DNA from: an uncultured Gammaproteobacteria bacterium
Lineage (GTDB): Bacteria > Patescibacteriota > Microgenomatia > UBA10105 > UBA927
NCBI GenBank assembly: GCA_964515005.1
Contig: CAZEVT010000004.1
Location: 4,302 to 68,301 of the forward strand
Reading direction: 5' to 3'
Length of the DNA stretch: 64,000 nucleotides
A model generated the notes under the pieces. That model had not been told where the DNA came from and did no database searches. It saw only the letters and a list, made by a program, of their open reading frames with translations. Shown one piece after another: positions 1,510-30,846 of this stretch; the first letter of the stretch is position 1, and the number at the start of each line of letters is the position of its first letter. A program made the position numbers and the translations under genes.

Positions 1510-1522
1510 TAGATATTAGTAT

Positions 1523-1590
1523 ACACGCACCTTACTCAGATTTGCAGCCCGACAGGGCGAAAAAGCTGATTAGATGCGTGGATATCCGGA
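1523..1590 (+). promoter_or_regulatory. conserved structured leader element, copy 1 (candidate cis-regulatory RNA)
   Basis: core UUACUCAGAUUUGCAGCCCGACAGGGCGAAAAAGCUGAUUAGAUG enclosed by the helix CACGCA/UGCGUG; two further copies with different closing helices; about 65 nt upstream of the 1658 start codon. Confidence 0.6.
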
Positions 1591-1657
1591 CTTACCTAAA
1601 TTTAGAGGGTGTACCGACTTGACAAGATCTGGTACATAGGGTTTACTTACATAAGAG

Positions 1658-2839: not shown

Positions 2840-2904
2840 CCATCTTACTCAGATTTGTAGTCCGACAGGACGAAAAAGCTGATTAGATGGATGGATACCC
2901 GGAC
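2840..2904 (+). promoter_or_regulatory. conserved structured leader element, copy 2
   Basis: same core as copy 1; closing helix CCAUCU/AGAUGG; inner hairpin GUCC-GACA-GGAC carries a compensatory double change relative to GCCC-GACA-GGGC. Confidence 0.6.
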
Positions 2905-2928
2905 TTTCCTTAATTTATAGGGTATAAT

Positions 2929-3297
2929 TTGAGCATTCCTCTGATGAAATCATATATACGATTTGCACATCGCCTGATGACGCTCATGGATACAAAATTT
3001 AACCTTTTTGGTATCCGGTTTGGGATAGATCCGCTTCTGGATATCTGGCCGGGTTTTGGAAGTTTGATCGGAGCGGGCATTTCCAGTTATCTCTTTTGGA
3101 TAGCCTACAAGCTGAATGTTCCCACGCGGCTCTACTTACGCATGGGTTGGCACATAGCGGTAGATTTTGTATTGGGCGCGATACCGTTTGTAGGATTTGC
3201 CTTTGACCTTTTCTACCGTGCAAATGCAAAAAACCTCGCACTTCTTACCCCATACGTAGATTCAGAAATACTTGAGGGAGTGGTGATGGAGAGATAA
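2929..3297 (+). CDS. DUF4112-like small membrane protein
   Basis: GIDPLLDIWPGFGSLIGAGIS motif typical of DUF4112. The ORF opens at a TTG at 2929, but ATG 2944 (MKSYIRF) is the more likely start. A TATAAT lies at 2923-2928. Confidence 0.6.
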   Translation: MSIPLMKSYIRFAHRLMTLMDTKFNLFGIRFGIDPLLDIWPGFGSLIGAGISSYLFWIAYKLNVPTRLYLRMGWHIAVDFVLGAIPFVGFAFDLFYRANAKNLALLTPYVDSEILEGVVMER

Positions 3298-3366: not shown

Positions 3367-4050
3367 ATGATCAAAGTTTTGCCTAAAGGTGCCGGTCATA
3401 GAAAACGATTAAGAGATAGATTTCTACAATCGGGCTTAGATGGATTTCTAGATTATGAAGTGATCGAATTGCTTTTAACTTTGGGAACACCCAGACGGGA
3501 TTGTAAGCAGATGGCGAAAGATGTGGTTAAAAAATTTAATGGGTTACGCGGCGCTCTTGATGCCTCAATTGAAGAATTACAAAATATTAGTGGAATAGGT
3601 CCGTATAATGCATTTGGCCTAAAACTCTTTCAGGAAATGTCTGCGCGTCTGGCAAGGGAGCAAATACCAGAAAAGATTACGCTCGATTCTTCAAAAGCTG
3701 TTGCGAATTATTTACAAAAATCTATAGGTTCAAAAAAGAAAGAATATTTTATTATGTTATCTTTAGACGCACGAAATAACTTAATAAAGATTAGTAATAT
3801 TTCAGTTGGTTCGCTTAACGCAAGCATTGTGCACCCAAGGGAGATTTTTAAAGAGGCAATTCAATCTTCTGCTGCGCACATATTAATAGCGCACAATCAT
3901 CCATCGGGTGACCCTGAAGCTTCGCCGGAAGATGTTGCCTTAACGCGACGATTGGGGGAAGCCGCAAAGATTTTTGACATAGATTTACTTGATCATGTTA
4001 TAGTTACAAGAGACAATTTTTTTAGCTTAAAGGAGCAAAATTTAATTTAA
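3367..4050 (+). CDS. radC: RadC-like JAB-domain protein (UPF0758)
   Basis: HNHPSGDPEASPEDVALTRRL JAMM/JAB motif and overall RadC length; first gene of the AT-rich island. Confidence 0.85.
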   Translation: MIKVLPKGAGHRKRLRDRFLQSGLDGFLDYEVIELLLTLGTPRRDCKQMAKDVVKKFNGLRGALDASIEELQNISGIGPYNAFGLKLFQEMSARLAREQIPEKITLDSSKAVANYLQKSIGSKKKEYFIMLSLDARNNLIKISNISVGSLNASIVHPREIFKEAIQSSAAHILIAHNHPSGDPEASPEDVALTRRLGEAAKIFDIDLLDHVIVTRDNFFSLKEQNLI

Positions 4051-4054
4051 ATAA

Positions 4055-4402
4055 ATGTCTGGTATAAAAAAACTTACAGAAAAAATTAAGAAATTTCGAG
4101 ATGAGCGAGATTGGAAACAATTTCATAACCCGAAAGATATGTCCCTTTCGCTAGTTTTGGAGGCGGCAGAGGTAATGGAGCATTTCCAATGGATGAGTTC
4201 AGAAGAAATGATAGTTTATACAAAAAGTAATAAGCATGAAATTGGTGAAGAGTTGGCAGACGTATTATATTGGATTCTTCTCATAAGTCATGATTTAGAG
4301 ATTGATATTATAGATGCATTAGAAAAGAAGCTTATAATTCAAGAAAAAAAATATCCAATAGAAAAAGCTAAGGGGAAGCACACTAAATATAACAAGCTTT
4401 AA
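4055..4402 (+). CDS. MazG-like nucleotide pyrophosphohydrolase domain protein
   Basis: about 115 aa; LEAAEVMEHFQW and EELADVLYWIL helices characteristic of MazG/NTP-PPase all-alpha domains; 4 nt after radC. Confidence 0.7.
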   Translation: MSGIKKLTEKIKKFRDERDWKQFHNPKDMSLSLVLEAAEVMEHFQWMSSEEMIVYTKSNKHEIGEELADVLYWILLISHDLEIDIIDALEKKLIIQEKKYPIEKAKGKHTKYNKL

Positions 4403-4405
4403 ATT

Positions 4406-6265
4406 ATGATCCTTTACGATGCCTCTATAGAACATTTTAATGAAGACGTAATGCAAAATCGTATTGCAGATCGTGCAGCCGAAAAATATCACGCGTACTA
4501 TAAAAGACAACCGGGGGAGTCTGAATATCGTTCATGGGCAATGTCGTTGGCAATTTTAAACAATAGCTTCATCTATGCTGGACTTAAAGATAATCATATA
4601 GTAGTTGAATACGAGCTCCCATTCGCTTCACAAAGGATCGATGTGTTATTGTTTGGACATGATGTTGATGGAAAAGAAAATATAGTGATTATGGAGCTTA
4701 AACAGTGGTCAAATGACAATGTTAAGGATTCAATTTCAGAGGGAAATATAATCGTTAATTATGGAAAATTCAAAAAAGAACAACCCCATCCGGCTTTGCA
4801 GGTGCAGGGGTATTATTTCGGTTTGAAAGATTTTGTTCAAGTTTTTGATGAAACAAATGCTCCAGATTTGAGCGCGACTATCTATGCACATAATTATTCG
4901 AAATACAAAGATGCAACACTCTTTTCTCCTAAATATTCTGAATTAATAAAAACGTTCCCGATATTTACAAAAGAAGATGCTGTCGAACTCGGCAGGTATT
5001 TAAAAAAACGTCTCCAAAGTGGAAAGGGGCAGTTGGTTTATGAACACTTTGCAAGAAGTCCAATCGGCCCATCAAAAAAACTTCTTGATCACACGAGTGA
5101 AATGATTAATAAACAACAAATATTTAACTTAATTGATGATCAAATTGTAGCGTACAACGCCATCATGCACAAAGCAAAACAGTTAGCAAAAATAAAAAAG
5201 AAATCAGTAATAATCGTAAAAGGTGGTCCTGGCACAGGGAAGTCAGTCATCGCGCTCGAGGTTATGGGTGAGCTTTTAAGGCGGGGAAAAACGGTTATGC
5301 ACGCTACTGGTTCGTCCGCGTTTACAAACACACTTAGAAAAATTGTTGGCGTTCGCGCACGAACTCTCTTCAAGTTTTTTAATGGCTTTACAACAACCAA
5401 ACCAGATTCTCTTGATGTTCTTGTCTGTGATGAGGCACATCGTATTAGAGAGACTAGTGTGAACAGATACACTCCTAGAGATCAAAGAACAAATTTGCCT
5501 CAGATCGACGAATTATTAAGAATAGCAAAGCTAAATATTTTCTTTATCGATGAAAATCAAACAGTTCGCCCAAATGAAATCGGCAGTGTTGCAATCATTA
5601 AAGAAGCTGCCAGACGCTTTGAGATCGATGAGTCAGAAATAATTGAATTTGAATTAAAAACCCAGTTTCGTTGTTCTGGGTCGGATGCATATTTACAATG
5701 GATTGATAAAGTTTTAGATATTCAAGGTTCTGACATCGCACACTTTGATCCTAAAATGGAATTTCGTATTTTTGAGTCTCCGTCTGAAATGATGACGGAA
5801 ATTAGAGCTAGAAATCAAGAGAAGGGCAATTCTGCAAGAATAGTTGCTGGGTTTTGCTGGCCATGGAGTAATCCAAATAGTGACGGGTCCTTAGTAAGTG
5901 ATGTAAAGGTTGGTAATTTTGAAATGCCGTGGGAGAAAAAAAATGAGTTTTGGAAATGGGCAACTGACCCGAGTGGAATGGAACAAGTTGGAACAGTGTA
6001 TACGTCACAAGGTTTTGAGTTTGACTATATAGGCGTCATATTCGGTAACGATTTAGTGTATGACTTGAAAAAACAAAAATGGATTGTAAAACCAGAAAAT
6101 TCACACGACACAATGGTTACAAGAAACAATGAAGACCTAGATAGACATTTAAAAAATGTATACCGGGTACTTATGTCCAGAGCTCACAAAGGGGTTTATG
6201 TATATTTTGTGGATAAGGCAACTGAAGAGTACTTTAAAGCTAATCTTAAAGAAGAACAAAAATGA
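4406..6265 (+). CDS. DUF2075-family ATPase/helicase-like protein with an N-terminal PD-(D/E)xK-like nuclease domain (Schlafen-like architecture)
   Basis: N-terminal QRIDVLLFG...IVIMELKQW (D...ExK); Walker A GGPGTGKS; Walker B/DEAH-like LVCDEAHR; C-terminal TVYTSQGFEFDYIGVIFG typical of DUF2075/UvrD-like C-termini. Confidence 0.8.
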   Translation: MILYDASIEHFNEDVMQNRIADRAAEKYHAYYKRQPGESEYRSWAMSLAILNNSFIYAGLKDNHIVVEYELPFASQRIDVLLFGHDVDGKENIVIMELKQWSNDNVKDSISEGNIIVNYGKFKKEQPHPALQVQGYYFGLKDFVQVFDETNAPDLSATIYAHNYSKYKDATLFSPKYSELIKTFPIFTKEDAVELGRYLKKRLQSGKGQLVYEHFARSPIGPSKKLLDHTSEMINKQQIFNLIDDQIVAYNAIMHKAKQLAKIKKKSVIIVKGGPGTGKSVIALEVMGELLRRGKTVMHATGSSAFTNTLRKIVGVRARTLFKFFNGFTTTKPDSLDVLVCDEAHRIRETSVNRYTPRDQRTNLPQIDELLRIAKLNIFFIDENQTVRPNEIGSVAIIKEAARRFEIDESEIIEFELKTQFRCSGSDAYLQWIDKVLDIQGSDIAHFDPKMEFRIFESPSEMMTEIRARNQEKGNSARIVAGFCWPWSNPNSDGSLVSDVKVGNFEMPWEKKNEFWKWATDPSGMEQVGTVYTSQGFEFDYIGVIFGNDLVYDLKKQKWIVKPENSHDTMVTRNNEDLDRHLKNVYRVLMSRAHKGVYVYFVDKATEEYFKANLKEEQK

Positions 6266-6963
6266 GACAAATACAAGATGACGTCCTTTCGTATAGGGAA
6301 ATGTGCGATGCGGAAAAGGTTCAAACGCTTCAGAGAGGAATGAATTTTCGCCTCAATTCGTCATATTCAGTTATTTTAATGTCCCAGAGATCAAATGCAC
6401 CTTATGCAGATAGGATACATTCTGATGGAGTAACCATTGAATATGAGGGACATGATGTATCGCGCCAGTCATACACCCACAATCCAAAGCTTGAAGATCA
6501 ATCGCATCAGCTACCCTCAGGCAAGCTCACGCAAAATGGTTTGTTTATTGATTCAATTAATAAATACAAAGAAAATAAATCGACACCCGAGCGCGTAAAG
6601 GCGTACGAAAAAATTATGAATGGTGTCTGGTCATTGAAGGGCTATTTTGATCTCATTGACTACAAAATAGTGAATGACGGCAAGCGCAACGTATTTCGAT
6701 TTATTTTACGACTCTCGGATAAACAATCCCCTGATACGAATATTCAGAACATGCAGCTTAGTCATACACGTCTTATTCCATCTGAGGTAAAAAAAGAAGT
6801 GTGGAAGAGAGATGAAGGTAAATGTGTCAAATGCGGATCTCGAGAAAATTTACATTTCGATCACGATTTGCCCTTTTCACGAGGTGGAACAAGTCTAACA
6901 GCGAAGAACGTACGACTATTATGTTTGAAACACAATTTAGAAAAATCAGCGAAAATTCAGTAG
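6262..6963 (+). CDS. HNH endonuclease with an uncharacterised ~170-aa N-terminal domain
   Basis: C-terminal CVKCGS...LHFDHDLPFSRGG...LLCLKHN HNH motif; ATGA overlap with the upstream ATPase gene. Confidence 0.8.
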   Translation: MRQIQDDVLSYREMCDAEKVQTLQRGMNFRLNSSYSVILMSQRSNAPYADRIHSDGVTIEYEGHDVSRQSYTHNPKLEDQSHQLPSGKLTQNGLFIDSINKYKENKSTPERVKAYEKIMNGVWSLKGYFDLIDYKIVNDGKRNVFRFILRLSDKQSPDTNIQNMQLSHTRLIPSEVKKEVWKRDEGKCVKCGSRENLHFDHDLPFSRGGTSLTAKNVRLLCLKHNLEKSAKIQ

Positions 6964-8477: not shown

Positions 8478-8581
8478 GTCGCAGACATGCCTTGAAGCCT
8501 AAATTATTTCCCCACGGCGTGGATTGCCGGAGAAATGATTACACACCGGGTGTGAAATAGCTAGACACCTAATAAAAATTT

Positions 8582-8609
8582 ATGTATAAACTTTCTCCAT
8601 CAGATTTTG
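8582..8609 (+). repeat. 28-bp direct repeat, copy A (5' end of the nuclease gene)
   Basis: atgtataaactttctccatcagattttg matches 10253..10280 at 27 of 28 positions. Confidence 0.8.
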
Positions 8610-9229
8610 CTTATTTATACGAGGAGTGTAAGCATTGCTATTACCTGAAAATCCGTAAGGGCATTGGGCGGCCGAGCATGCCGTTCCCCGGAGTATTTGG
8701 CGCGATCAATACCAGATTGCAGGGGAATATGGTGGGGAAGGACTTGCGGGAGCTTTCGGATAAACTCCCCGAGGGGACCGTGGAGAGTCAGGAGGGGTAT
8801 GTGCAATCCGCCGTTATTGCCGGAACCACGGTATTTGTCAAAGGCAAGTATGATCTTCTGGTCAGACTCCCGGATGGCACGTACATGATAGTTGATCTCA
8901 AACTCAGTACTCCGAAAGATGAGAAGGTTGCCAAATATCAATCGCAACTATGGTCGTATGTATATGCCTTTGAACATCCTGCCGCGGGAGCACCAAAGAA
9001 GATAACGCGGGCGGGACTCCTGATTTTCTATCCCGATGCCGTTTCATTTGCCGGCGGCGTCGCTTCCCTTACGTTTCCGCCCACGTGGCTGGCGGTACCG
9101 GTGGACCGCGATGCATTTGCGAAGTTTATCGTAGGAGTGAACGATCTTTTGGAAGGCCCAACGCCGCCGGAGAATACGGATTGTAATTGGTGTAAATATA
9201 GACAAGCTGTTAAAGTGCTTGAAAACTGA
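8582..9229 (+). CDS. PD-(D/E)xK nuclease of the RecB/Cas4-like family with N- and C-terminal Cys pairs
   Basis: motifs KYDLLV, IVDLKLS (DxK) and QSQLWSYVYAF (QxxxY); CKHCYY near the N-terminus and CNWCKY near the C-terminus. Confidence 0.65.
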   Translation: MYKLSPSDFAYLYEECKHCYYLKIRKGIGRPSMPFPGVFGAINTRLQGNMVGKDLRELSDKLPEGTVESQEGYVQSAVIAGTTVFVKGKYDLLVRLPDGTYMIVDLKLSTPKDEKVAKYQSQLWSYVYAFEHPAAGAPKKITRAGLLIFYPDAVSFAGGVASLTFPPTWLAVPVDRDAFAKFIVGVNDLLEGPTPPENTDCNWCKYRQAVKVLEN

Positions 9230-9410: not shown

Positions 9411-10247
9411 ATGACCACCCGTGACATCGAAACGACGAAAATTGCCCTGTTCAAAGGGAAAAAGATAAGAAAAATTATTTATAACAACGACTGGTGGTTT
9501 TCGATTATTGACGTCATTGCAGCGCTTACGGGAAATGCTCGTCCGAGAAAATATTGGAGCGATCTAAAGAAGAAGCTTATTAAAGAAGGCTATTTTGAAG
9601 TGTCCGAAAAAATCGGACAGTTGAAATTGGAAGCTCCTGACGGGAAAAAGCGCGAAACTGACTGTGCAAACACAGAAACACTTTTCCGCATTGTCCAATC
9701 CATTCCCTCTCCGAAAGCAGAACCGTTTAAGCGCTGGCTGGCAAGAGTGGGGTATGAGCGAATCCAAGAAATAGAAGATCCGGAGCTTGCTACCAAGAGA
9801 ACGCGGATACTTTATAAACTGAAAGGATATCCAAATGATTGGATTGAAAAACGCATGCGCGGGATAGCGATTCGCGAAGAATTGACCGATGAATGGCAAA
9901 AACGAGGAGCAAGACATCAAAAAGAATATGAAATTCTTACCGCTGAGATTTCCAAAGCGACGTTCGGCGTTACTCCGAGTGGTTATAAAAAGCTGAAAGG
10001 TTTGAAGCGGGAGAATCTGCGCGATCATATGGATGATTTTGAGCTAATTTTTACCATGCTTGGTGAGCGATCAACGACGGAAATTCACCGTACAGAAGAT
10101 TCGAGGGGTGTGCCAAAACTAAAAGCAGATGCTAGAGCCGGTGGTGATATAGCCGGCGGAGCAAGAAAAAAGTTGGAAAAACGCTTAGCTCGTTCGATTG
10201 TTTCAAAAAATAATTATTTACCAAAGAGAAGAAAATCGTTAAAGTAA
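9411..10247 (+). CDS. Bro-N domain protein (phage antirepressor-like)
   Basis: IRKIIYNNDWWFSIIDVIAALTGNARPRKYWSDL and SPKAEPFKRWLARVGYERIQ match Bro-N signatures; TATAAT at 9399-9404. Confidence 0.75.
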   Translation: MTTRDIETTKIALFKGKKIRKIIYNNDWWFSIIDVIAALTGNARPRKYWSDLKKKLIKEGYFEVSEKIGQLKLEAPDGKKRETDCANTETLFRIVQSIPSPKAEPFKRWLARVGYERIQEIEDPELATKRTRILYKLKGYPNDWIEKRMRGIAIREELTDEWQKRGARHQKEYEILTAEISKATFGVTPSGYKKLKGLKRENLRDHMDDFELIFTMLGERSTTEIHRTEDSRGVPKLKADARAGGDIAGGARKKLEKRLARSIVSKNNYLPKRRKSLK

Positions 10248-10252
10248 TCTCT

Positions 10253-10280
10253 ATGTACAAACTTTCTCCATCAGATTTTG
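10253..10280 (+). repeat. 28-bp direct repeat, copy B
   Basis: atgtacaaactttctccatcagattttg; opens a 54-codon orphan ORF (MYKLSPSDFVSSGSG...) that lies antisense to the 10271..10816 gene. Confidence 0.8.
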
Positions 10281-11417: not shown

Positions 11418-12164
11418 TTACGAAGAAATGTATGCGTGGTAGATGTTTTGGGCGCCTTTTCCCTTGAGTGCTTTATCGGTGTTTGCAAGAACCCCGTCGT
11501 AATCGGATATGATGACGACATTATCATCTAAGCGTGACAATTCTTTTTTAAGAAACGCATAGGCGTCCCGTGGGGTGGCGCCTTGTACGCCATCTTTTAC
11601 ATAGAAATCGTGCAGCTCGATGTTGAGGGCGGCCACCGAGGAGACAAGGGACCGGATATCATGGATATGATCCTCTTTATCGTCAAGGACATACGCGTGG
11701 AGCGCCGTATCACGGGGTTTTTGTGCGCGGAGTTCCTGTAAAATAGTGAGTAGCCCTTCCCGTTTGTTTTCCGTCATGCACCGGAAGTTTTCGCGGGGAA
11801 CCCCGAGATCAAAAATCCCGGTTCTTTCTGCCTTATTTGTTTGCCAGCCCACGTCTCCCACCGTCCAGACGATAAGCTCGTTTCCGTGAGTGCGGGCGAG
11901 TGTTGTGAGTTTGGCGACAAAAGGCTCCTCTCCTGCGCGCATGAGACAATCCGGAGTACATGCGGTTTCCAGAGCTTCGCGGACTGTTTCGAAAAGATCC
12001 GGTCTGTCCCATGACAGCTCGCTGCGCAGACTCTCGGTCATGTTGCCTACACTTGCCGGCCAGTTAAACCCACCGGCTGGCGTGAGACCGTACCACGCTT
12101 TGGCGGCGATCGTCTCTTGAATGATCCGAAGGGCGTGTGGTTTGGGAGCAACTTCTATGACCAT
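11418..12164 (-). CDS. hypothetical protein (248 aa)
   Basis: intact ORF. The C-terminal ISDYDGVLANTD looks like a HAD motif I but sits at the wrong end of the protein, so it is left unassigned. Confidence 0.5.
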   Translation of the reverse strand: MVIEVAPKPHALRIIQETIAAKAWYGLTPAGGFNWPASVGNMTESLRSELSWDRPDLFETVREALETACTPDCLMRAGEEPFVAKLTTLARTHGNELIVWTVGDVGWQTNKAERTGIFDLGVPRENFRCMTENKREGLLTILQELRAQKPRDTALHAYVLDDKEDHIHDIRSLVSSVAALNIELHDFYVKDGVQGATPRDAYAFLKKELSRLDDNVVIISDYDGVLANTDKALKGKGAQNIYHAYISS

Positions 12165-15277: not shown

Positions 15278-15297
15278 TATCTTGCAACTTTTAAGCT

Positions 15298-15330
15298 AAA
15301 TTCACGCCAAATTGACAAAAATACGTGAAT
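15298..15330 (+). promoter_or_regulatory. 33-bp operator-like direct repeat, copy 1 (palindrome AAATTCACG-N15-CGTGAATTT)
   Basis: identical to 15349..15381; contains TTGACA. Confidence 0.6.
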
Positions 15331-15348
15331 TTGACCTATTTTTGATTC

Positions 15349-15381
15349 AAATTCACGCCAAATTGACAAAAATACGTGAAT
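15349..15381 (+). promoter_or_regulatory. 33-bp operator-like direct repeat, copy 2, overlapping a sigma70-like promoter for the Fic gene
   Basis: TTGACA at 15363-15368, then 17 nt, then TATACT; ATG at 15398. Confidence 0.6.
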
Positions 15382-15397
15382 ATGCTATACTTTTCCC

Positions 15398-16300
15398 ATG
15401 ACTACCGGTTCAACGTTAAAAATCCGCATAGCCGAGCTCAAAAAGAGATTCGATACGCTTAGGAGGGGCAAAGACGCGCTCCTTACCGTCCTTGATGAGG
15501 CTGAAGTGCCGGAAAGCGTCTATAACTCCAATGCCATAGAAAACTCTACCTTAACCCTGAAACAAACGGAGCAAATTCTTTTGGAGTTGGAAGTTTCCGG
15601 TCATATAACACTTCGTGAGGTATATGAAGCGAAAAATCTGGCACGAGTCATCGGATACACCCGTGAAAAAGCGAAAGAAAGCAATGTAACCATAGATGTC
15701 ATTCTATTTTTACATAAAATGCTGTTGTCCCATATCCATGAATCAATTGCGGGGAAATTTCGTACACTTGGGCAATACGTGCGCGTGGGCACATTTATAG
15801 CCCCGCCGCCTGAACACGTAGTGAAACTCATGGATGAGTTATGTATGGCATATGAAAATGACTTTAGCGGGTACTTTTTGGATAAAATTGCAATGTTCCA
15901 TCTTGGATTTGAAACGATTCATCCGTTTGTTGATGGGAACGGCAGAATCGGTCGGGAGATAATGAACTATCAATTACGTCGACTGGGATTTCCGCGGGTA
16001 ATCATACGGGATAAGGAAAAGCAAACGTATTACCGATCATTCATTGAGTACCGCGATTATAAACGTACCAAAACGATGGAACGTGTCGTTGCACTCGCAA
16101 TCATGGAGTCACTTCATAAGAGAATTGCGTATCTCGTTGGTGCAACGATTATTCCTTTGTCTGATGTGGTCCGGGATCAACATGCAGCGCCATCGGCTGT
16201 GTTTAACGCCGCAAAACGTCAGACGATCCCTGCGTTTCGGGAAAAAGGCGTATGGAAGATCGGGAAAGAAGAGATGGAGCGTAGTCAGAAACCCGTCTAA
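15398..16300 (+). CDS. Fic/Doc (Fido) family protein
   Basis: HPFVDGNGRIGR Fic motif. Confidence 0.9.
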   Translation: MTTGSTLKIRIAELKKRFDTLRRGKDALLTVLDEAEVPESVYNSNAIENSTLTLKQTEQILLELEVSGHITLREVYEAKNLARVIGYTREKAKESNVTIDVILFLHKMLLSHIHESIAGKFRTLGQYVRVGTFIAPPPEHVVKLMDELCMAYENDFSGYFLDKIAMFHLGFETIHPFVDGNGRIGREIMNYQLRRLGFPRVIIRDKEKQTYYRSFIEYRDYKRTKTMERVVALAIMESLHKRIAYLVGATIIPLSDVVRDQHAAPSAVFNAAKRQTIPAFREKGVWKIGKEEMERSQKPV

Positions 16301-17769: not shown

Positions 17770-17841
17770 TAGCGCGTAGGGGAGTCGAACCCCTCTTGCT
17801 AGATTGAGAATCTAACGTCCTAACCGATAGACGAACGCGCC
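17770..17841 (-). tRNA. tRNA-Glu (anticodon CUC)
   Basis: hand-folded from the reverse complement GGCGCGUUCGUCUAUCGGUUAGGACGUUAGAUUCUCAAUCUAGCAAGAGGGGUUCGACUCCCCUACGCGCUA. It has a 7-bp acceptor stem (G1-U72 wobble), a 3-bp D stem as in bacterial tRNA-Glu, the anticodon loop UUCUCAA, and a GGGGUUCGACUCCCC T-arm. No CCA is encoded. Confidence 0.75.
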
Positions 17842-17868: not shown

Positions 17869-17898
17869 TTGACATAGCAATGTGAATTGCGATACAAT
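17869..17898 (+). promoter_or_regulatory. sigma70-like promoter upstream of greA
   Basis: TTGACA (17869-17874), 18-nt spacer, TACAAT (17893-17898). Confidence 0.5.
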
Positions 17899-17939
17899 TT
17901 ATTTACTTTACCAAGAGTAAAGTGAATTTATTCAGCTTG

Positions 17940-17978
17940 CTCCCTAAGATCCTATTCGGCCGTAGGGAGGTTTTTTTT
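17940..17978 (+). promoter_or_regulatory. leader hairpin plus U-tract in the greA 5' UTR (possible attenuator that sequesters the SD)
   Basis: CTCCCTA / TAGGGAG 7-bp stem, 16-nt loop, then T8. The 3' arm overlaps the GGGAGG Shine-Dalgarno. Confidence 0.45.
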
Positions 17979-17982
17979 GATT

Positions 17983-18450
17983 ATGGACCCAAACAGCAAA
18001 GTACTCCTTACCAAAGAAGGACTTGAAGAAATCAAACGGGAATACGACGAACTCGCCCGCGTAAAGCGGCCGGTGGCCGTCAAGCGCCTCGCGGATGCCC
18101 GCGAGCTCGGTGATTTATCCGAAAACAGCGAGTATGCCGCGGCAAAACAGGATTTGGCGTTCATGGACGGGCGCATCATAGAGCTTGAGGAAATCCTCCA
18201 CAGCGCCAAACTCATTTCCAAAAACCACACCAGAAGCATGGTCGATGTCGGCTGCAAAGTCACCCTCCACGTTGACGGCAAGAAAGAAGAGTTTACGCTC
18301 GTGGGCGAGTGGGAGGCAGACCCCAAAGAAAAGAAAATATCCCACGAATCTCCGCTTGGGAAGGCTCTCATGGGCAAAAAGGTCGGAGAAAAAGTGGAGG
18401 TTGAGGCTCCGGCGGGCCGCGTGCTCTATAAGATATTAACGATAGAATAA
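17983..18450 (+). CDS. greA: transcription elongation factor GreA
   Basis: MDPNSKVLLTKEGLEELKREYDEL... with GreA coiled-coil and FKBP-like C-terminal domain signatures. The ORF track starts at TTG 17977, but ATG 17983 is preferred. Confidence 0.9.
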   Translation: MDPNSKVLLTKEGLEEIKREYDELARVKRPVAVKRLADARELGDLSENSEYAAAKQDLAFMDGRIIELEEILHSAKLISKNHTRSMVDVGCKVTLHVDGKKEEFTLVGEWEADPKEKKISHESPLGKALMGKKVGEKVEVEAPAGRVLYKILTIE

Positions 18451-29378: not shown

Positions 29379-29426
29379 CGAAAGTGATCCCTTGCGGAAG
29401 TAGATATTTGTAAGTAAAATAACATA

Positions 29427-29494
29427 TACTCATTTTACTCAGGTTTGCAGCCCGATAGGGCGAAAAAACTGATTAGATGAGTAGATACCCGGAC
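29427..29494 (+). promoter_or_regulatory. conserved structured leader element, copy 3
   Basis: same core; closing helix UACUCAU/AUGAGUA; ends about 20 nt before ATG 29516. Confidence 0.6.
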
Positions 29495-29506
29495 GGGTAA
29501 AATCCC

Positions 29507-30343
29507 TTGGAATATATGAAGATATTTAAAAACTTTAAGCTTCCTTCAAACTCCGTCCAAACCATATTGGTTATTGCTCTTATCGCGGCCGCCTATTTCA
29601 TCGGGAATCTTTCGGCAAAAGTCCAGTTGCTTCAGGGAGGCGCAGGTGCTCCTACGACCGCACAGCCGGATGCTGCTGCTCCAGTAGTGACACTTGATCA
29701 GATTAAGGAAGTATTTAAAAAGGGTGTTATTAAATTCGGCGACGTCAACAGCAAGCTTCTTTTTGTGGAAGTGGCAGATCCGAGCTGTCCGTACTGTCAT
29801 ATTGCCGCCGGTAAAAACCCTGAGCTGAATAACACATCTGACCAATTTAAACTGGTTTCCGCGGGAGGAACCTACCTGGCACCGGTGCCGGAAATGAAAA
29901 AGTTGGTCGATGCTGGAAAAGCGGCATTTGTCTGGTTGTATACCAGCGGGCACGGGAACGGGGAAATGGGAACCAAAGCACTCTACTGCGCCTTTGAAAA
30001 AGGAAAATTCTGGGAAGCGCATGACCTTCTTATGACGGCAAAAGGGTATGAACTTCTCAACGGCACAACGGCGGCGGGTGCGGCTACGACCGGACCGGTT
30101 GTGAAAAATGATAAAACAAAATCCGGCGAGCTTGCAGCCTTCTTGGCGCCAGCCGTTGACTCCGCATTTCTCAAGTCGTGCCTTGATTCCGGCAAATATG
30201 ACGGGCGAATTTCTGAAGACAGCCAACTGGCTGCGGGCGTTGGGATCACCGGTACCCCGGGATTCTTTGTGAACGAACGGTCATTTTCCGGGGCATATAG
30301 CTTCAAAGACATGCAGCCTTTAGTTGACGCCGCACTTAAGTAA
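29507..30343 (+). CDS. DsbA-like thioredoxin-fold protein
   Basis: SCPYCH CxxC motif; N-terminal TM helix. The ORF opens at TTG 29507; ATG 29516 (MKIFKNF) is the likely start. Confidence 0.75.
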   Translation: MEYMKIFKNFKLPSNSVQTILVIALIAAAYFIGNLSAKVQLLQGGAGAPTTAQPDAAAPVVTLDQIKEVFKKGVIKFGDVNSKLLFVEVADPSCPYCHIAAGKNPELNNTSDQFKLVSAGGTYLAPVPEMKKLVDAGKAAFVWLYTSGHGNGEMGTKALYCAFEKGKFWEAHDLLMTAKGYELLNGTTAAGAATTGPVVKNDKTKSGELAAFLAPAVDSAFLKSCLDSGKYDGRISEDSQLAAGVGITGTPGFFVNERSFSGAYSFKDMQPLVDAALK

Positions 30344-30348
30344 ACCTG

Positions 30349-30846
30349 TTAGCTCTTTCGCCTCTTTGCCGTATGCCCATTTAATCGATACCCGTGAGTA
30401 AGGGCAATGGCCAGCGCATCTGCCGTATCATCCGGTTTCGGAATTTCCCGCAAATGCAGTAGTTTCGTTACCGTCTTTTGTACATCCTTTTTTTCCGCCC
30501 TTCCGTTGCCGCAGATGGTTAATTTGACTGACGGGGGAGAGTAGGAAATAACCGGAATGTTGTGAGTGGCAGCCGCCAGAATTATTACTCCTCGAGCTTG
30601 CCCGACCGCCATGACCGTTTTTGCGTTTGAGGCAAAAAAGAGGAGCTCAATGCTTACATATTCCGGCTTATATTTGACAACGATGTGTAATATTTTCTGG
30701 TAAATAATCAGAAGTCGCTCTTGGGGGCTCTCTGTTTTTTCCGTCTCAATACATCCGTACGCAATTGCGTGAAACTTTGATTTTTGTTTATCGAGTATCG
30801 CCCAGCCGACACGTGCAGTTCCCGGATCGATACCTAAGATAATCAT
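30349..30846 (-). CDS. ruvC: Holliday junction resolvase RuvC
   Basis: MIILGIDPGTARVGWAIL N-terminus and RNase-H-like acidic residues. Confidence 0.9.
   Translation of the reverse strand: MIILGIDPGTARVGWAILDKQKSKFHAIAYGCIETEKTESPQERLLIIYQKILHIVVKYKPEYVSIELLFFASNAKTVMAVGQARGVIILAAATHNIPVISYSPPSVKLTICGNGRAEKKDVQKTVTKLLHLREIPKPDDTADALAIALTHGYRLNGHTAKRRKS

Follow-up and report, generated by a model that had tools for sequence, protein, structure and literature searches.

A covarying hairpin upstream of a DUF4112 gene belongs to a repeat family of Microgenomates, probably a non-autonomous palindromic DNA element

Introduction

In a 64,000-nucleotide (nt) stretch of DNA deposited as an uncultured Gammaproteobacteria bacterium (assembly GCA_964515005.1, contig CAZEVT010000004.1, positions 4,302 to 68,301; hereafter the window), an intergenic hairpin precedes a gene for a DUF4112 membrane protein and recurs at two other sites, one of the three copies carrying a double substitution that leaves a base pair intact. 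This raises the question of whether the element is a structured regulatory RNA of the genes it precedes, as suggested in an original prediction made from the letters alone, or a DNA repeat whose hairpin is kept for some other reason. Our results indicate that it is probably a lineage-specific, non-autonomous, dispersed palindromic DNA element of Microgenomates, similar to miniature inverted-repeat transposable elements (MITEs) or REP sequences. The observations that carry this reading are the repeat family and its copy numbers, the covariation of its stems, the lack of a fixed orientation, the unrelated neighbouring genes, the empty orthologous sites, and the TATA or -10 box sequences found at the junctions.

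To our knowledge, there are hardly any descriptions of small mobile or repetitive elements from the very reduced genomes of the candidate phyla radiation (CPR). In the literature on repeats, RNA motifs, MITEs and leaderless promoters of CPR bacteria or Patescibacteria, no description of the present repeat was found; TIGR-Tas arrays, considered as a match from the literature, were rejected, being tandem short units unlike a dispersed repeat.

Results

Three copies of a compensated hairpin

Three direct copies on the + strand were returned by a repeat search of the window (1528-1613, 2841-2926 and 29431-29516, ~86-95 nt each), and a search with the inner-hairpin pattern matched exactly the same three. 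A covariance model placed copies 1, 2 and 3 at 1520-1587, 2832-2900 and 29423-29490, respectively, and detected no further copy in the window, a weak match at 17896-17935 being unrelated to the repeat. The copies are 81-87% identical to one another and fold into a common three-tier irregular hairpin ("H1"), with z-scores of -2.7 to -4.4 against shuffled sequences. From the outside to the inside, H1 comprises an outer stem, the loop UAC/UU, the stem P2 (UCAG/CUGA), an A.G mismatch, UUU/AAA, the 3x3 loop GYA/GAA (GUA/GAA in copy 2) and the inner hairpin P3. On the + strand, P3 reads GCCC-GACA-GGGC in copy 1 (1547-1558), GUCC-GACA-GGAC in copy 2 (2860-2871) and GCCC-GAUA-GGGC in copy 3 (29450-29461); U2861 and A2870 of copy 2 stand against C and G in copies 1 and 3 and keep the pair, confirming that the double substitution is compensatory.

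The whole repeat of copy 2 (2832-2926, +; TATAC...GGGTATA) consists of H1 followed by a short second hairpin, and receives 74.8 bits from the covariance model (2832-2900). Its H1 (2832-2898, +) has the outer stem UAUAC..CCAUCU/AGAUGG..GGAUAC, and in its second hairpin (2895-2925, +) AUACCC (2895-2900) pairs with GGGUAU (2920-2925), with CCGGAC in the loop. The conserved "tail" GAUAYCCGGAC, which had been assigned to a possible expression platform, is in fact the 3' arm of the outer stem plus the base of the second hairpin. Copy 1 extends over 1520-1613 (+; TATAC...GGGTGTA) and copy 3 over 29425-29499 (+; TATAC...GGGTA), the latter with a short form of the second hairpin, AUACCC-GGAC-GGGUA, at 29485-29499 (+).

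Covariation of the stems across the family

Since three sequences by themselves offer little evidence of covariation, relatives were collected. A strict three-block DNA pattern returned 4 loci from metagenome contigs (3 distinct, L006 being a duplicate of L002) together with 2 chance matches, and no match in viral contigs or genome contigs. Family sequences were gathered with a loose pattern, in which the internal loops were fixed and the stems left free (N); this yielded 82 stretches from species-representative genomes, of which 1 was a chance match, and all other sources were Microgenomates-type CPR metagenome-assembled genomes (MAGs), namely Roizman-, Gottesman- and Woesebacteria, WWE3, and some labelled 'Gammaproteobacteria'. 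In all, 82 genome loci and 3 metagenome loci match, and at least 100 copies were found in Microgenomates MAGs.

More than 30 genomes contributed to the alignment of H1, which comprised 83 sequences (78 distinct rows). Over the 78 distinct rows, the pair changed in copy 2 (columns 31-45) is C-G in 68, U-A in 5 and U-G in 1, and is unpaired in 4; the next pairs of P3 also vary (U-A 42, C-G 32, A-U 1; and C-G 56, U-A 10, G-C 2, A-U 1, U-G 6), as does one pair of P2 (C-G 35, A-U 25, U-A 17). Paired cells amount to 88.7% across the alignment, and the covariation score is 0.235, compared with 0.111 in shuffled alignments (0 of 500 reach the observed value) and at most 0.074 when the partners are slid by 1-3 columns. 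Covariation of the inner hairpin, originally noticed in the window copies, therefore holds across the family and indicates that the hairpin is maintained by selection; it is proof of a kept hairpin, and no proof of action as RNA. The invariance of the loops in the 83-sequence set was not counted as conservation, because they were fixed by the search pattern, and in divergent copies found later by the covariance model the loops are variable. The pairs of P2 and P3 comprise 599 Watson-Crick, 8 G.U and 4 A.C; this near-absence of wobble pairs agrees with a DNA-level constraint rather than an RNA-specific one, the numbers being small. No relevant match was found in Rfam 15, either in a gathering-score scan of the whole window or in a scan at E<=10 around the element.

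Modular architecture and arrays

The outer stem is of ~12 bp, the upstream TATAC box pairing with GGGTATA or GGATAC after the inner part, and compensatory variants of it are present, such as TAGA(T)CC/GGTCTA. The second hairpin of most family members forms a stem-loop of 40-50 nt, TATACTGAG...GAAGTATA; RNAalifold on a MAFFT alignment recovered only 5 basal pairs of it, because the interiors of the second hairpins do not align, and folds of single sequences show the hairpin. Units are 45-70 nt long, all of them bounded by TATAC...GTATA, and the whole repeat is ~95-130 nt and non-coding. In the main subfamily, 15-20 of 26 positions agree between the left end (the 5' strand of H1) and the reverse-complemented right end (the 3' strand of the second hairpin), vs 9.5 +/- 2 in shuffled sequences.

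Units are also combined with one another. In a Roizmanbacteria MAG (contigs MGAN01...), at least 4 unit types occur in arrays, other units with TATAC...GTATA bounds flanking H1 on both sides; nested units were found in L021, L035, L047 and L061, and truncated copies, solo arms and nested small hairpins occur elsewhere in the family. Such a mosaic architecture is that of dispersed palindromic repeats and not that of a riboswitch. The hairpins are not followed by a T-run. Another small palindromic repeat, GCCTGCGCA(A/T)GCAGG, recurs intergenically in related genomes (L096 at ~2940-2960, L098 at ~560-580, L047, L087, L050 and L076), and is at times nested within the element formed by H1 and the second hairpin.

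Copy number, orientation and neighbouring genes

Among the fetched loci, the pattern alone gives 16, 11 and 9 copies for three MAGs, and the covariance model (R1) gave 117 matches in 568 kb of fetched loci, including weaker reverse-strand, divergent and truncated ones. Identity of H1 is 0.86-0.93 within a genome vs 0.79 between genomes. Among 65 copies with open reading frames on both flanks, 22 lie between divergent and 7 between convergent genes (p=0.008), and the copies in a co-directional context are divided into 16 sense and 20 antisense (p=0.62). The 150 nearest flanking proteins fall into 167 Pfam families, none of them found in more than 5 proteins, with examples such as a penicillin-binding protein, M23 peptidase, ABC ATPase, sulfate permease, tRNA synthetase, HAD hydrolase and methyltransferases; tRNA genes also flank copies, and in L087 a tRNA-Ile gene starts 17 nt past the left end. 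The neighbours of the repeat are functionally unrelated and form no coherent gene set. In the window, all 3 copies are on the same strand as a downstream gene for a membrane or secreted protein, and copies 2 and 3 lie 32-45 nt beyond the stop codon of an upstream co-directional gene.

No match was obtained in viral contigs with the loose pattern, nor in phage and plasmid records by blastn with copy 2, so there is no sign of carriage on such elements. Several MAGs deposited as 'uncultured Gammaproteobacteria' hold this Microgenomates-specific repeat, and an identical sequence is deposited under both L034 (a 'Woesearchaeota archaeon' MAG) and L011 (a 'Gammaproteobacteria' MAG); mislabelled taxonomy or bin contamination is likely in these and similar MAGs.

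Empty orthologous sites at the three window loci

Insertion polymorphism was evident from empty counterparts of 3 of 3 window loci. The original prediction had suggested aligning orthologous intergenic regions as a check; at all three window loci, the element is missing from them.

Copy 3 is followed by a DsbA-like gene (29516-30343), and is absent from five syntenic loci (L089-L093, with four orthologous DsbA genes 68-78% identical), in which the covariance model found no match. DsbA and RuvC-type genes are present at all five loci, and EamA also at the two closest; the orthologous spacers are of 40-65 nt, and the window appears in the alignment as a ~92-nt insertion, which separates a conserved promoter-like stretch (29392-29420) from the start codon. 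At 29498-29515, the GGAGG Shine-Dalgarno sequence of all orthologues is lost ahead of the DsbA-like gene, the window having TTGGAAT there and reading TTGGAATATATG; the translation start signals of this gene may have changed following the insertion of copy 3.

Copy 2 is followed by the DUF4112 gene (2944-3297, +; Pfam PF13430, E=1.7e-25), and is absent from five loci with DUF4112 orthologues (L094-L098). The site reads GAGGGAGTATA|CTTTGAGC in L096 and L098 (up to the start codon, GAGGGAGTATA|CTTTGAGCAT..ATG) and ATAGGGTATA|ATTTGAGC in L095 (ATAGGGTATA|ATTTGAGCA..ATG), and the junctions in the window read GAGGGGAGTATA[C...GGGTATA]ATTTGAGC, or, up to the start codon, GAGGGGAGTATA[CAGCCCATC...TTTATAGGGTATA]ATTTGAGCAT..ATG. 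L095 shares one MAG assembly (contigs JAPLWC01...) with L064, which has the repeat elsewhere.

Copy 1 stands between a divergent leaderless gene encoding 304 aa on its left (595-1509, -) and a gene for a 204-aa secreted protein on its right (1658-2272), and is absent from L099 and L101 (proteins 87% and 82% identical), the gap between the divergent genes being 20 nt in L101 vs 148 nt in the window. At the same locus in L100 (3950-4000), the terminal ~30 nt of an H1 arm are left, CTGCAAATCTGGGTTAGATACGTATATACT, adjoining TATACT and repeated GTTAACAT motifs; this is a decayed copy, indicating that the elements degrade in situ.

Empty sites carry a single TA/TATA at each of the three loci, and the flanks of the filled sites are TATA...TGTA (copy 1), TATA...TATA (copy 2) and TATA...TAAA (copy 3), the variants TGTA and TAAA belonging to older copies. 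In 2 of the 3 window cases the insertion target coincides with the -10 box of the neighbouring gene.

Promoters and leaderless genes around the copies

The hexamer TATAAT at 2923-2928 (+), which the original prediction had placed between the element and the likely start codon, very probably serves the DUF4112 gene as its -10 box: it is kept by orthologues without the element, with GGGTATAATTTGAGCA or GAGTATACTTTGAGCA at an equal distance from the ATG. Its TATA is common to the right end of the repeat, and there is no -35 match. The ATG at 2944 stands as the start of the gene, since it fits homologues of 117 aa. With the same -10 box in element-free orthologues, copy 2 is located upstream of the likely transcription start, as had been proposed, and by sequence comparison it is probably outside the DUF4112 transcript. 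Two other candidates were rejected, the first of them as a general explanation: an upstream TATAYA taken as a -10 box, which would put the element at the 5' end of the transcript, is the 5' arm of the outer stem and the insertion target; and a second hairpin hiding a Shine-Dalgarno sequence is not compatible with a start at ATG 2944, the lack of such a sequence there in any orthologue, and the many leaderless genes.

The other two copies have different surroundings. The 304-aa gene has a probable -10 box, TATACT, at 1518-1523 (-), 8 nt before its ATG and overlapping the left end of copy 1; the + strand reads AGTATA at this position and copy 1 abuts the box, lying just upstream of it with respect to the 304-aa gene and on the opposite strand. 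TATACT is likewise found 6-8 nt ahead of the start codon of this gene in L099, L100 and L101. To the right of copy 1, TTGACA-17-TTTACT (1619-1647, +), conserved in L101, is probably the own promoter of the 204-aa gene, and thus the mRNA of this gene need not include the repeat. Just upstream of copy 3, the promoter-like TTGCGG-17-TAAAAT (29392-29420, +) is conserved in orthologues; if it is used, copy 3 would probably be transcribed within the 5' untranslated region of the DsbA-like gene. The transcription context therefore differs among copies 1, 2 and 3, which argues against a common RNA role. A simple sigma-70 scan called none of these putative promoters, TATAAT being missed for want of a -35 match and TTTACT for having no A at position 2, and near copy 3 it called another pair (TAGATA-18-TATACT, 29401-29430); hence the assignments are based on conservation in orthologues and not on the scan.

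Of 70 window genes, 9 have a TATA[AC]T that begins 8-20 nt ahead of the start codon, vs 0.73 in shuffled sequences (maximum of 5 in 1000), and these genes are usually without a Shine-Dalgarno sequence, which suggests that this Gottesmanbacteria-like genome commonly has leaderless or short-leader mRNAs. TATACT or TATAAT occurs 6-12 nt before the start of, for example, the genes at 9411, 11418-12164 (-), 15398, 30349-30846 (-), 30864 and 50635. The ends of the element are frequently found within 0-20 nt of a start codon, on either side, which we attribute to native -10 boxes close to start codons serving as targets.

Hexamers resembling -35 boxes were also found within the repeat. On the reverse strand, 63 of 82 copies have CTGCAA or CTGTAA at a distance of exactly 16 nt from the left-end TATA, the left-end CTGCAA being partly imposed by the search pattern and matching TTGACA at 3 of 6 positions. 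In roughly 20 of 66 copies, TTGCAA-like hexamers are located 16 nt away from the TATA of the right end, and the subfamily of the window has CCGGAC there. We hypothesize that such -35-like hexamers, (T/C)TGCAA, could take part in promoter restoration.

Discussion

A probable mobile origin and its alternatives

We infer that the family spread by transposition, with a hairpin recognized by a transposase and with promoters rebuilt at the junctions. According to the mechanism that we propose, units would insert at TA or TATA, mostly in the -10 boxes (AGTATA[AC]T) of leaderless or short-leader genes, in either orientation and leaving TATA on both sides, and after insertion a -10 box (TATAAT in the case of copy 2) would be rebuilt beside the gene. 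Each insertion would recreate its own target and units would consequently accumulate into mosaic arrays. The stems would be kept through their recognition by a mobilising enzyme, either as a hairpin of single-stranded DNA or as a duplex inverted repeat. Read-through RNA, probably in the case of copy 3, would fold into the same hairpins, any effect on the mRNA being a by-product. The proposed link to -10 boxes of leaderless genes appears to be the most distinctive trait of the repeat.

Several observations weigh against a mobile DNA element. No recurrent transposase was found among the 150 flanking proteins, from 8-kb stretches around copies, and no autonomous partner element among orphan ends. 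The subfamily of the window shows ~10 of 26 end matches, with no terminal inverted repeat past TAYAC(C), and the 81-87% identity of the three window copies points to old insertions. A target duplication of TA, of TATA or none at all would look alike, since GTATAC is palindromic and part of the stem. Proteins of the genomes with empty sites are 68-87% identical to those of the window, a distance at which loss rather than gain is formally possible, and the excess of copies in promoter regions is as compatible with a retained function as with target choice. Furthermore, the loops UAC/UU and GYA/GAA are identical in sequences gathered without constraint (window copies and metagenome matches), G.U slightly exceeds A.C on the + strand (~24 vs 12, with the inner P1 counted by hand), and the covariance-model score is ~80 bits on the forward vs ~30 on the reverse strand; this asymmetry and the constant internal loops suggest that one particular strand is recognised, which could be RNA.

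A cis-regulatory RNA leader, riboswitch-like or protein-binding, for the DUF4112, DsbA-like and 204-aa envelope genes would account for a stable covarying hairpin, for the internal loops conserved in unconstrained sequences, for the sense position of every window copy towards a membrane or secreted-protein gene, and for the placement of copy 3 downstream of a conserved promoter-like region and ahead of the start codon. We nevertheless regard it as very unlikely, given that 20 of the 36 co-directional copies in the family are antisense and 7 further copies lie between convergent genes, that the neighbours are unrelated and include tRNAs, and that the element is missing upstream of the orthologous DUF4112, DsbA and 304-aa/204-aa genes; copy 2 moreover stands upstream of a conserved -10 box and copy 1 upstream of TTGACA-17-TTTACT, Rfam holds no match, and truncated and nested copies occur. 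A gene-specific structured RNA with an expression platform, as originally envisaged, is thus not sustained by an element without fixed orientation or position, with unrelated neighbours and empty orthologous sites. Orientation independent of the neighbours would be expected of trans-acting small RNA genes, each with its own TATA box, either sibling small RNAs or remnants of guides or scaffolds of the IS200/IS605-TnpB type. The multiple, structured and asymmetric copies and the TATA-like box at the 5' edge agree with this, and the two hairpins with a fixed flanking pentanucleotide may be seen as resembling IS200/IS605 ends. Such genes are highly improbable here: transcription from a -10 box at the left edge would begin within the outer stem, the second hairpin is followed by no terminator or T-run, many copies are truncated, no TnpB, IscB or TnpA-like gene was found among the 150 neighbours, and there is no match to IS605-orfB or any other family of Rfam.

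A domesticated module, acting as a promoter through outward -35-like (T/C)TGCAA hexamers, as an insulator blocking read-through, or as a stabiliser of transcript ends, is unlikely in our estimation, and is compatible with a mobile origin. It finds some basis in the 22 divergent vs 7 convergent copies, in ends that abut start codons, in the hexamers 16 nt from the terminal TATA together with the tRNA-Ile gene of L087 starting 17 nt past the left end, and in the position of copies 2 and 3 at 32-45 nt after an upstream co-directional stop codon. However, the left CTGCAA is partly pattern-imposed with its 3 of 6 matches to TTGACA, the subfamily of the window has CCGGAC instead of TTGCAA, no T-run follows the hairpins, the native -10 boxes predate the insertion so that the repeat is not needed to create them, and the orthologues work without the element. 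Returning to a mobile, non-autonomous DNA repeat as the probable explanation, a more specific version, which we consider doubtful, is that H1 serves as substrate of a CPR transposase, HUH-type (single-strand-specific) or TA-targeting, that homes on AGTATA[AC]T -10 boxes and restores the promoter. If true, this would be a promoter-homing and nearly harmless mobile element, with the -10 box rebuilt at both junctions and -35-like hexamers pointing outward, shaping transcription in tiny genomes. In a weaker variant, the asymmetric loops would reflect an RNA-level role, such as protein binding to transcript ends, of a repeat spread by transposition.

Comparison with known repeat families

In mode of action, the repeat resembles Correia elements (CREE/NEMIS), which are MITEs of Neisseria of ~100-150 bp, non-coding and intergenic, with a TA-type target and ends that form or rebuild -10 boxes; they occur in either orientation, form a hairpin when transcribed, and are present or absent between related genomes. 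The present repeat is also dispersed, with TATA at the junctions, -10 boxes at the ends, either orientation and empty sites. The resemblance is limited to the mode of action, however, as sequence and host phylum are unrelated: the Neisseria-specific 26-bp terminal repeat TATAGTGGATTAACAAAAATCAGGAC is absent, the repeat ends reading TATACCCATCTTACTC... instead. In addition, Correia elements consist of one unit closed by pairing between its 26-bp terminal inverted repeats, whereas here each unit has its own hairpin and units are strung in arrays; Correia copies are counted in hundreds vs tens here, the subfamily of the window is without clear terminal inverted repeats, and no integration host factor site was identified.

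For REP/BIME sequences and the REPIN-RAYT system of Proteobacteria, recognition by an HUH (Y1) transposase in the form of single-stranded DNA hairpins is assumed. These sequences share with the present repeat the short extragenic imperfect palindromes, the compensatory stems, the mosaics and a genome-specific consensus, but H1, at ~68 nt, is longer than the 20-40 nt of REP units and lacks a GT[AG]G head, promoter regions are favoured here and not gene 3' ends, and no RAYT gene was seen in the 8-kb stretches around copies. BOX, RUP and ERIC/IRU repeats of Streptococcus pneumoniae and enterobacteria are similar in being modular, or intergenic imperfect palindromes of ~100-130 bp; they are often co-transcribed and able to alter the expression of neighbouring genes. 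They have no sequence relationship to the present repeat and, unlike it, are not tied to -10 boxes or leaderless genes. The repeat is accordingly no sequence member of the Correia, REP/BIME or BOX/ERIC families.

PATE elements derived from IS200/IS605 likewise have hairpins near both ends, strand asymmetry and a short sequence at both sides (here GTATA). In IS200/IS605 elements, however, the hairpins are subterminal, with guide sequences that pair to the cleavage sites, whereas the outer stem of the present repeat reaches the end and includes the TATA, and no TnpA or TnpB was found near its copies. Riboswitch-like leaders also resemble it, by a covarying multi-helix hairpin with conserved internal loops in front of genes; here, in contrast, strand and position are not fixed, there is no regulon, the element is not kept at orthologous loci, and it is multi-copy with truncated remnants.

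These findings bear on the search for structured RNAs. A clean compensatory change sits here in a dispersed DNA repeat, and covariation alone thus does not identify a regulatory RNA; riboswitch screens of CPR genomes would repeatedly catch this family. A repeat that settles on -10 boxes ahead of leaderless genes, with a -10 box remaining afterwards, could be a source of promoter turnover in Microgenomates. The family might also serve as a strain marker in metagenomes, and may cause assembly breaks. Finally, comparisons of empty sites provide promoter evidence for uncultured Gottesmanbacteria, namely AGTATA[AC]T 6-8 nt before the start codon.

Further observations in the window

Other intergenic and mobile features were noted along the window. 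At 17869-17978 (+), TTGACA (17869-17874) and TACAAT (17892-17897), with a spacing of 17, are followed by a small hairpin and by a terminator-like stem, CTCCCTAAG...CGTAGGGAGG, with T8, which ends at the start of the greA gene (17977-18450; Pfam GreA_GreB); a tRNA (17770-17841, -) adjoins this region. By analogy, the arrangement looks like a terminated leader or small RNA before greA, such as GraL of E. coli. Directly upstream of a leaderless gene for a Fic-domain protein (15398-16300), two tandem 51-nt units (15289-15390; 82% identical), each with an inverted repeat AATTCACG...CGTGAATT around TTGACA, could be a duplicated operator or promoter.

Downstream of the DUF4112 gene, the region 3367-6963 is occupied by consecutive genes of the kind seen in defence or mobile islands, encoding a RadC-like JAB protein (3367-4050), a MazG-like protein (4055-4402), a Schlafen-type helicase/DUF2075 protein (4406-6265) and an HNH protein (6262-6963). 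Beyond it lie the genes for a PD-(D/E)XK nuclease (8582-9229) and a Bro-N protein (9411-10247), and a 29-nt repeat, TATGTAYAAACTTTCTCCATCAGATTTTG, is found in two copies 97% identical to each other, one at the start of the PD-(D/E)XK gene (8581-8609) and the other just after the Bro-N gene (10252-10280).

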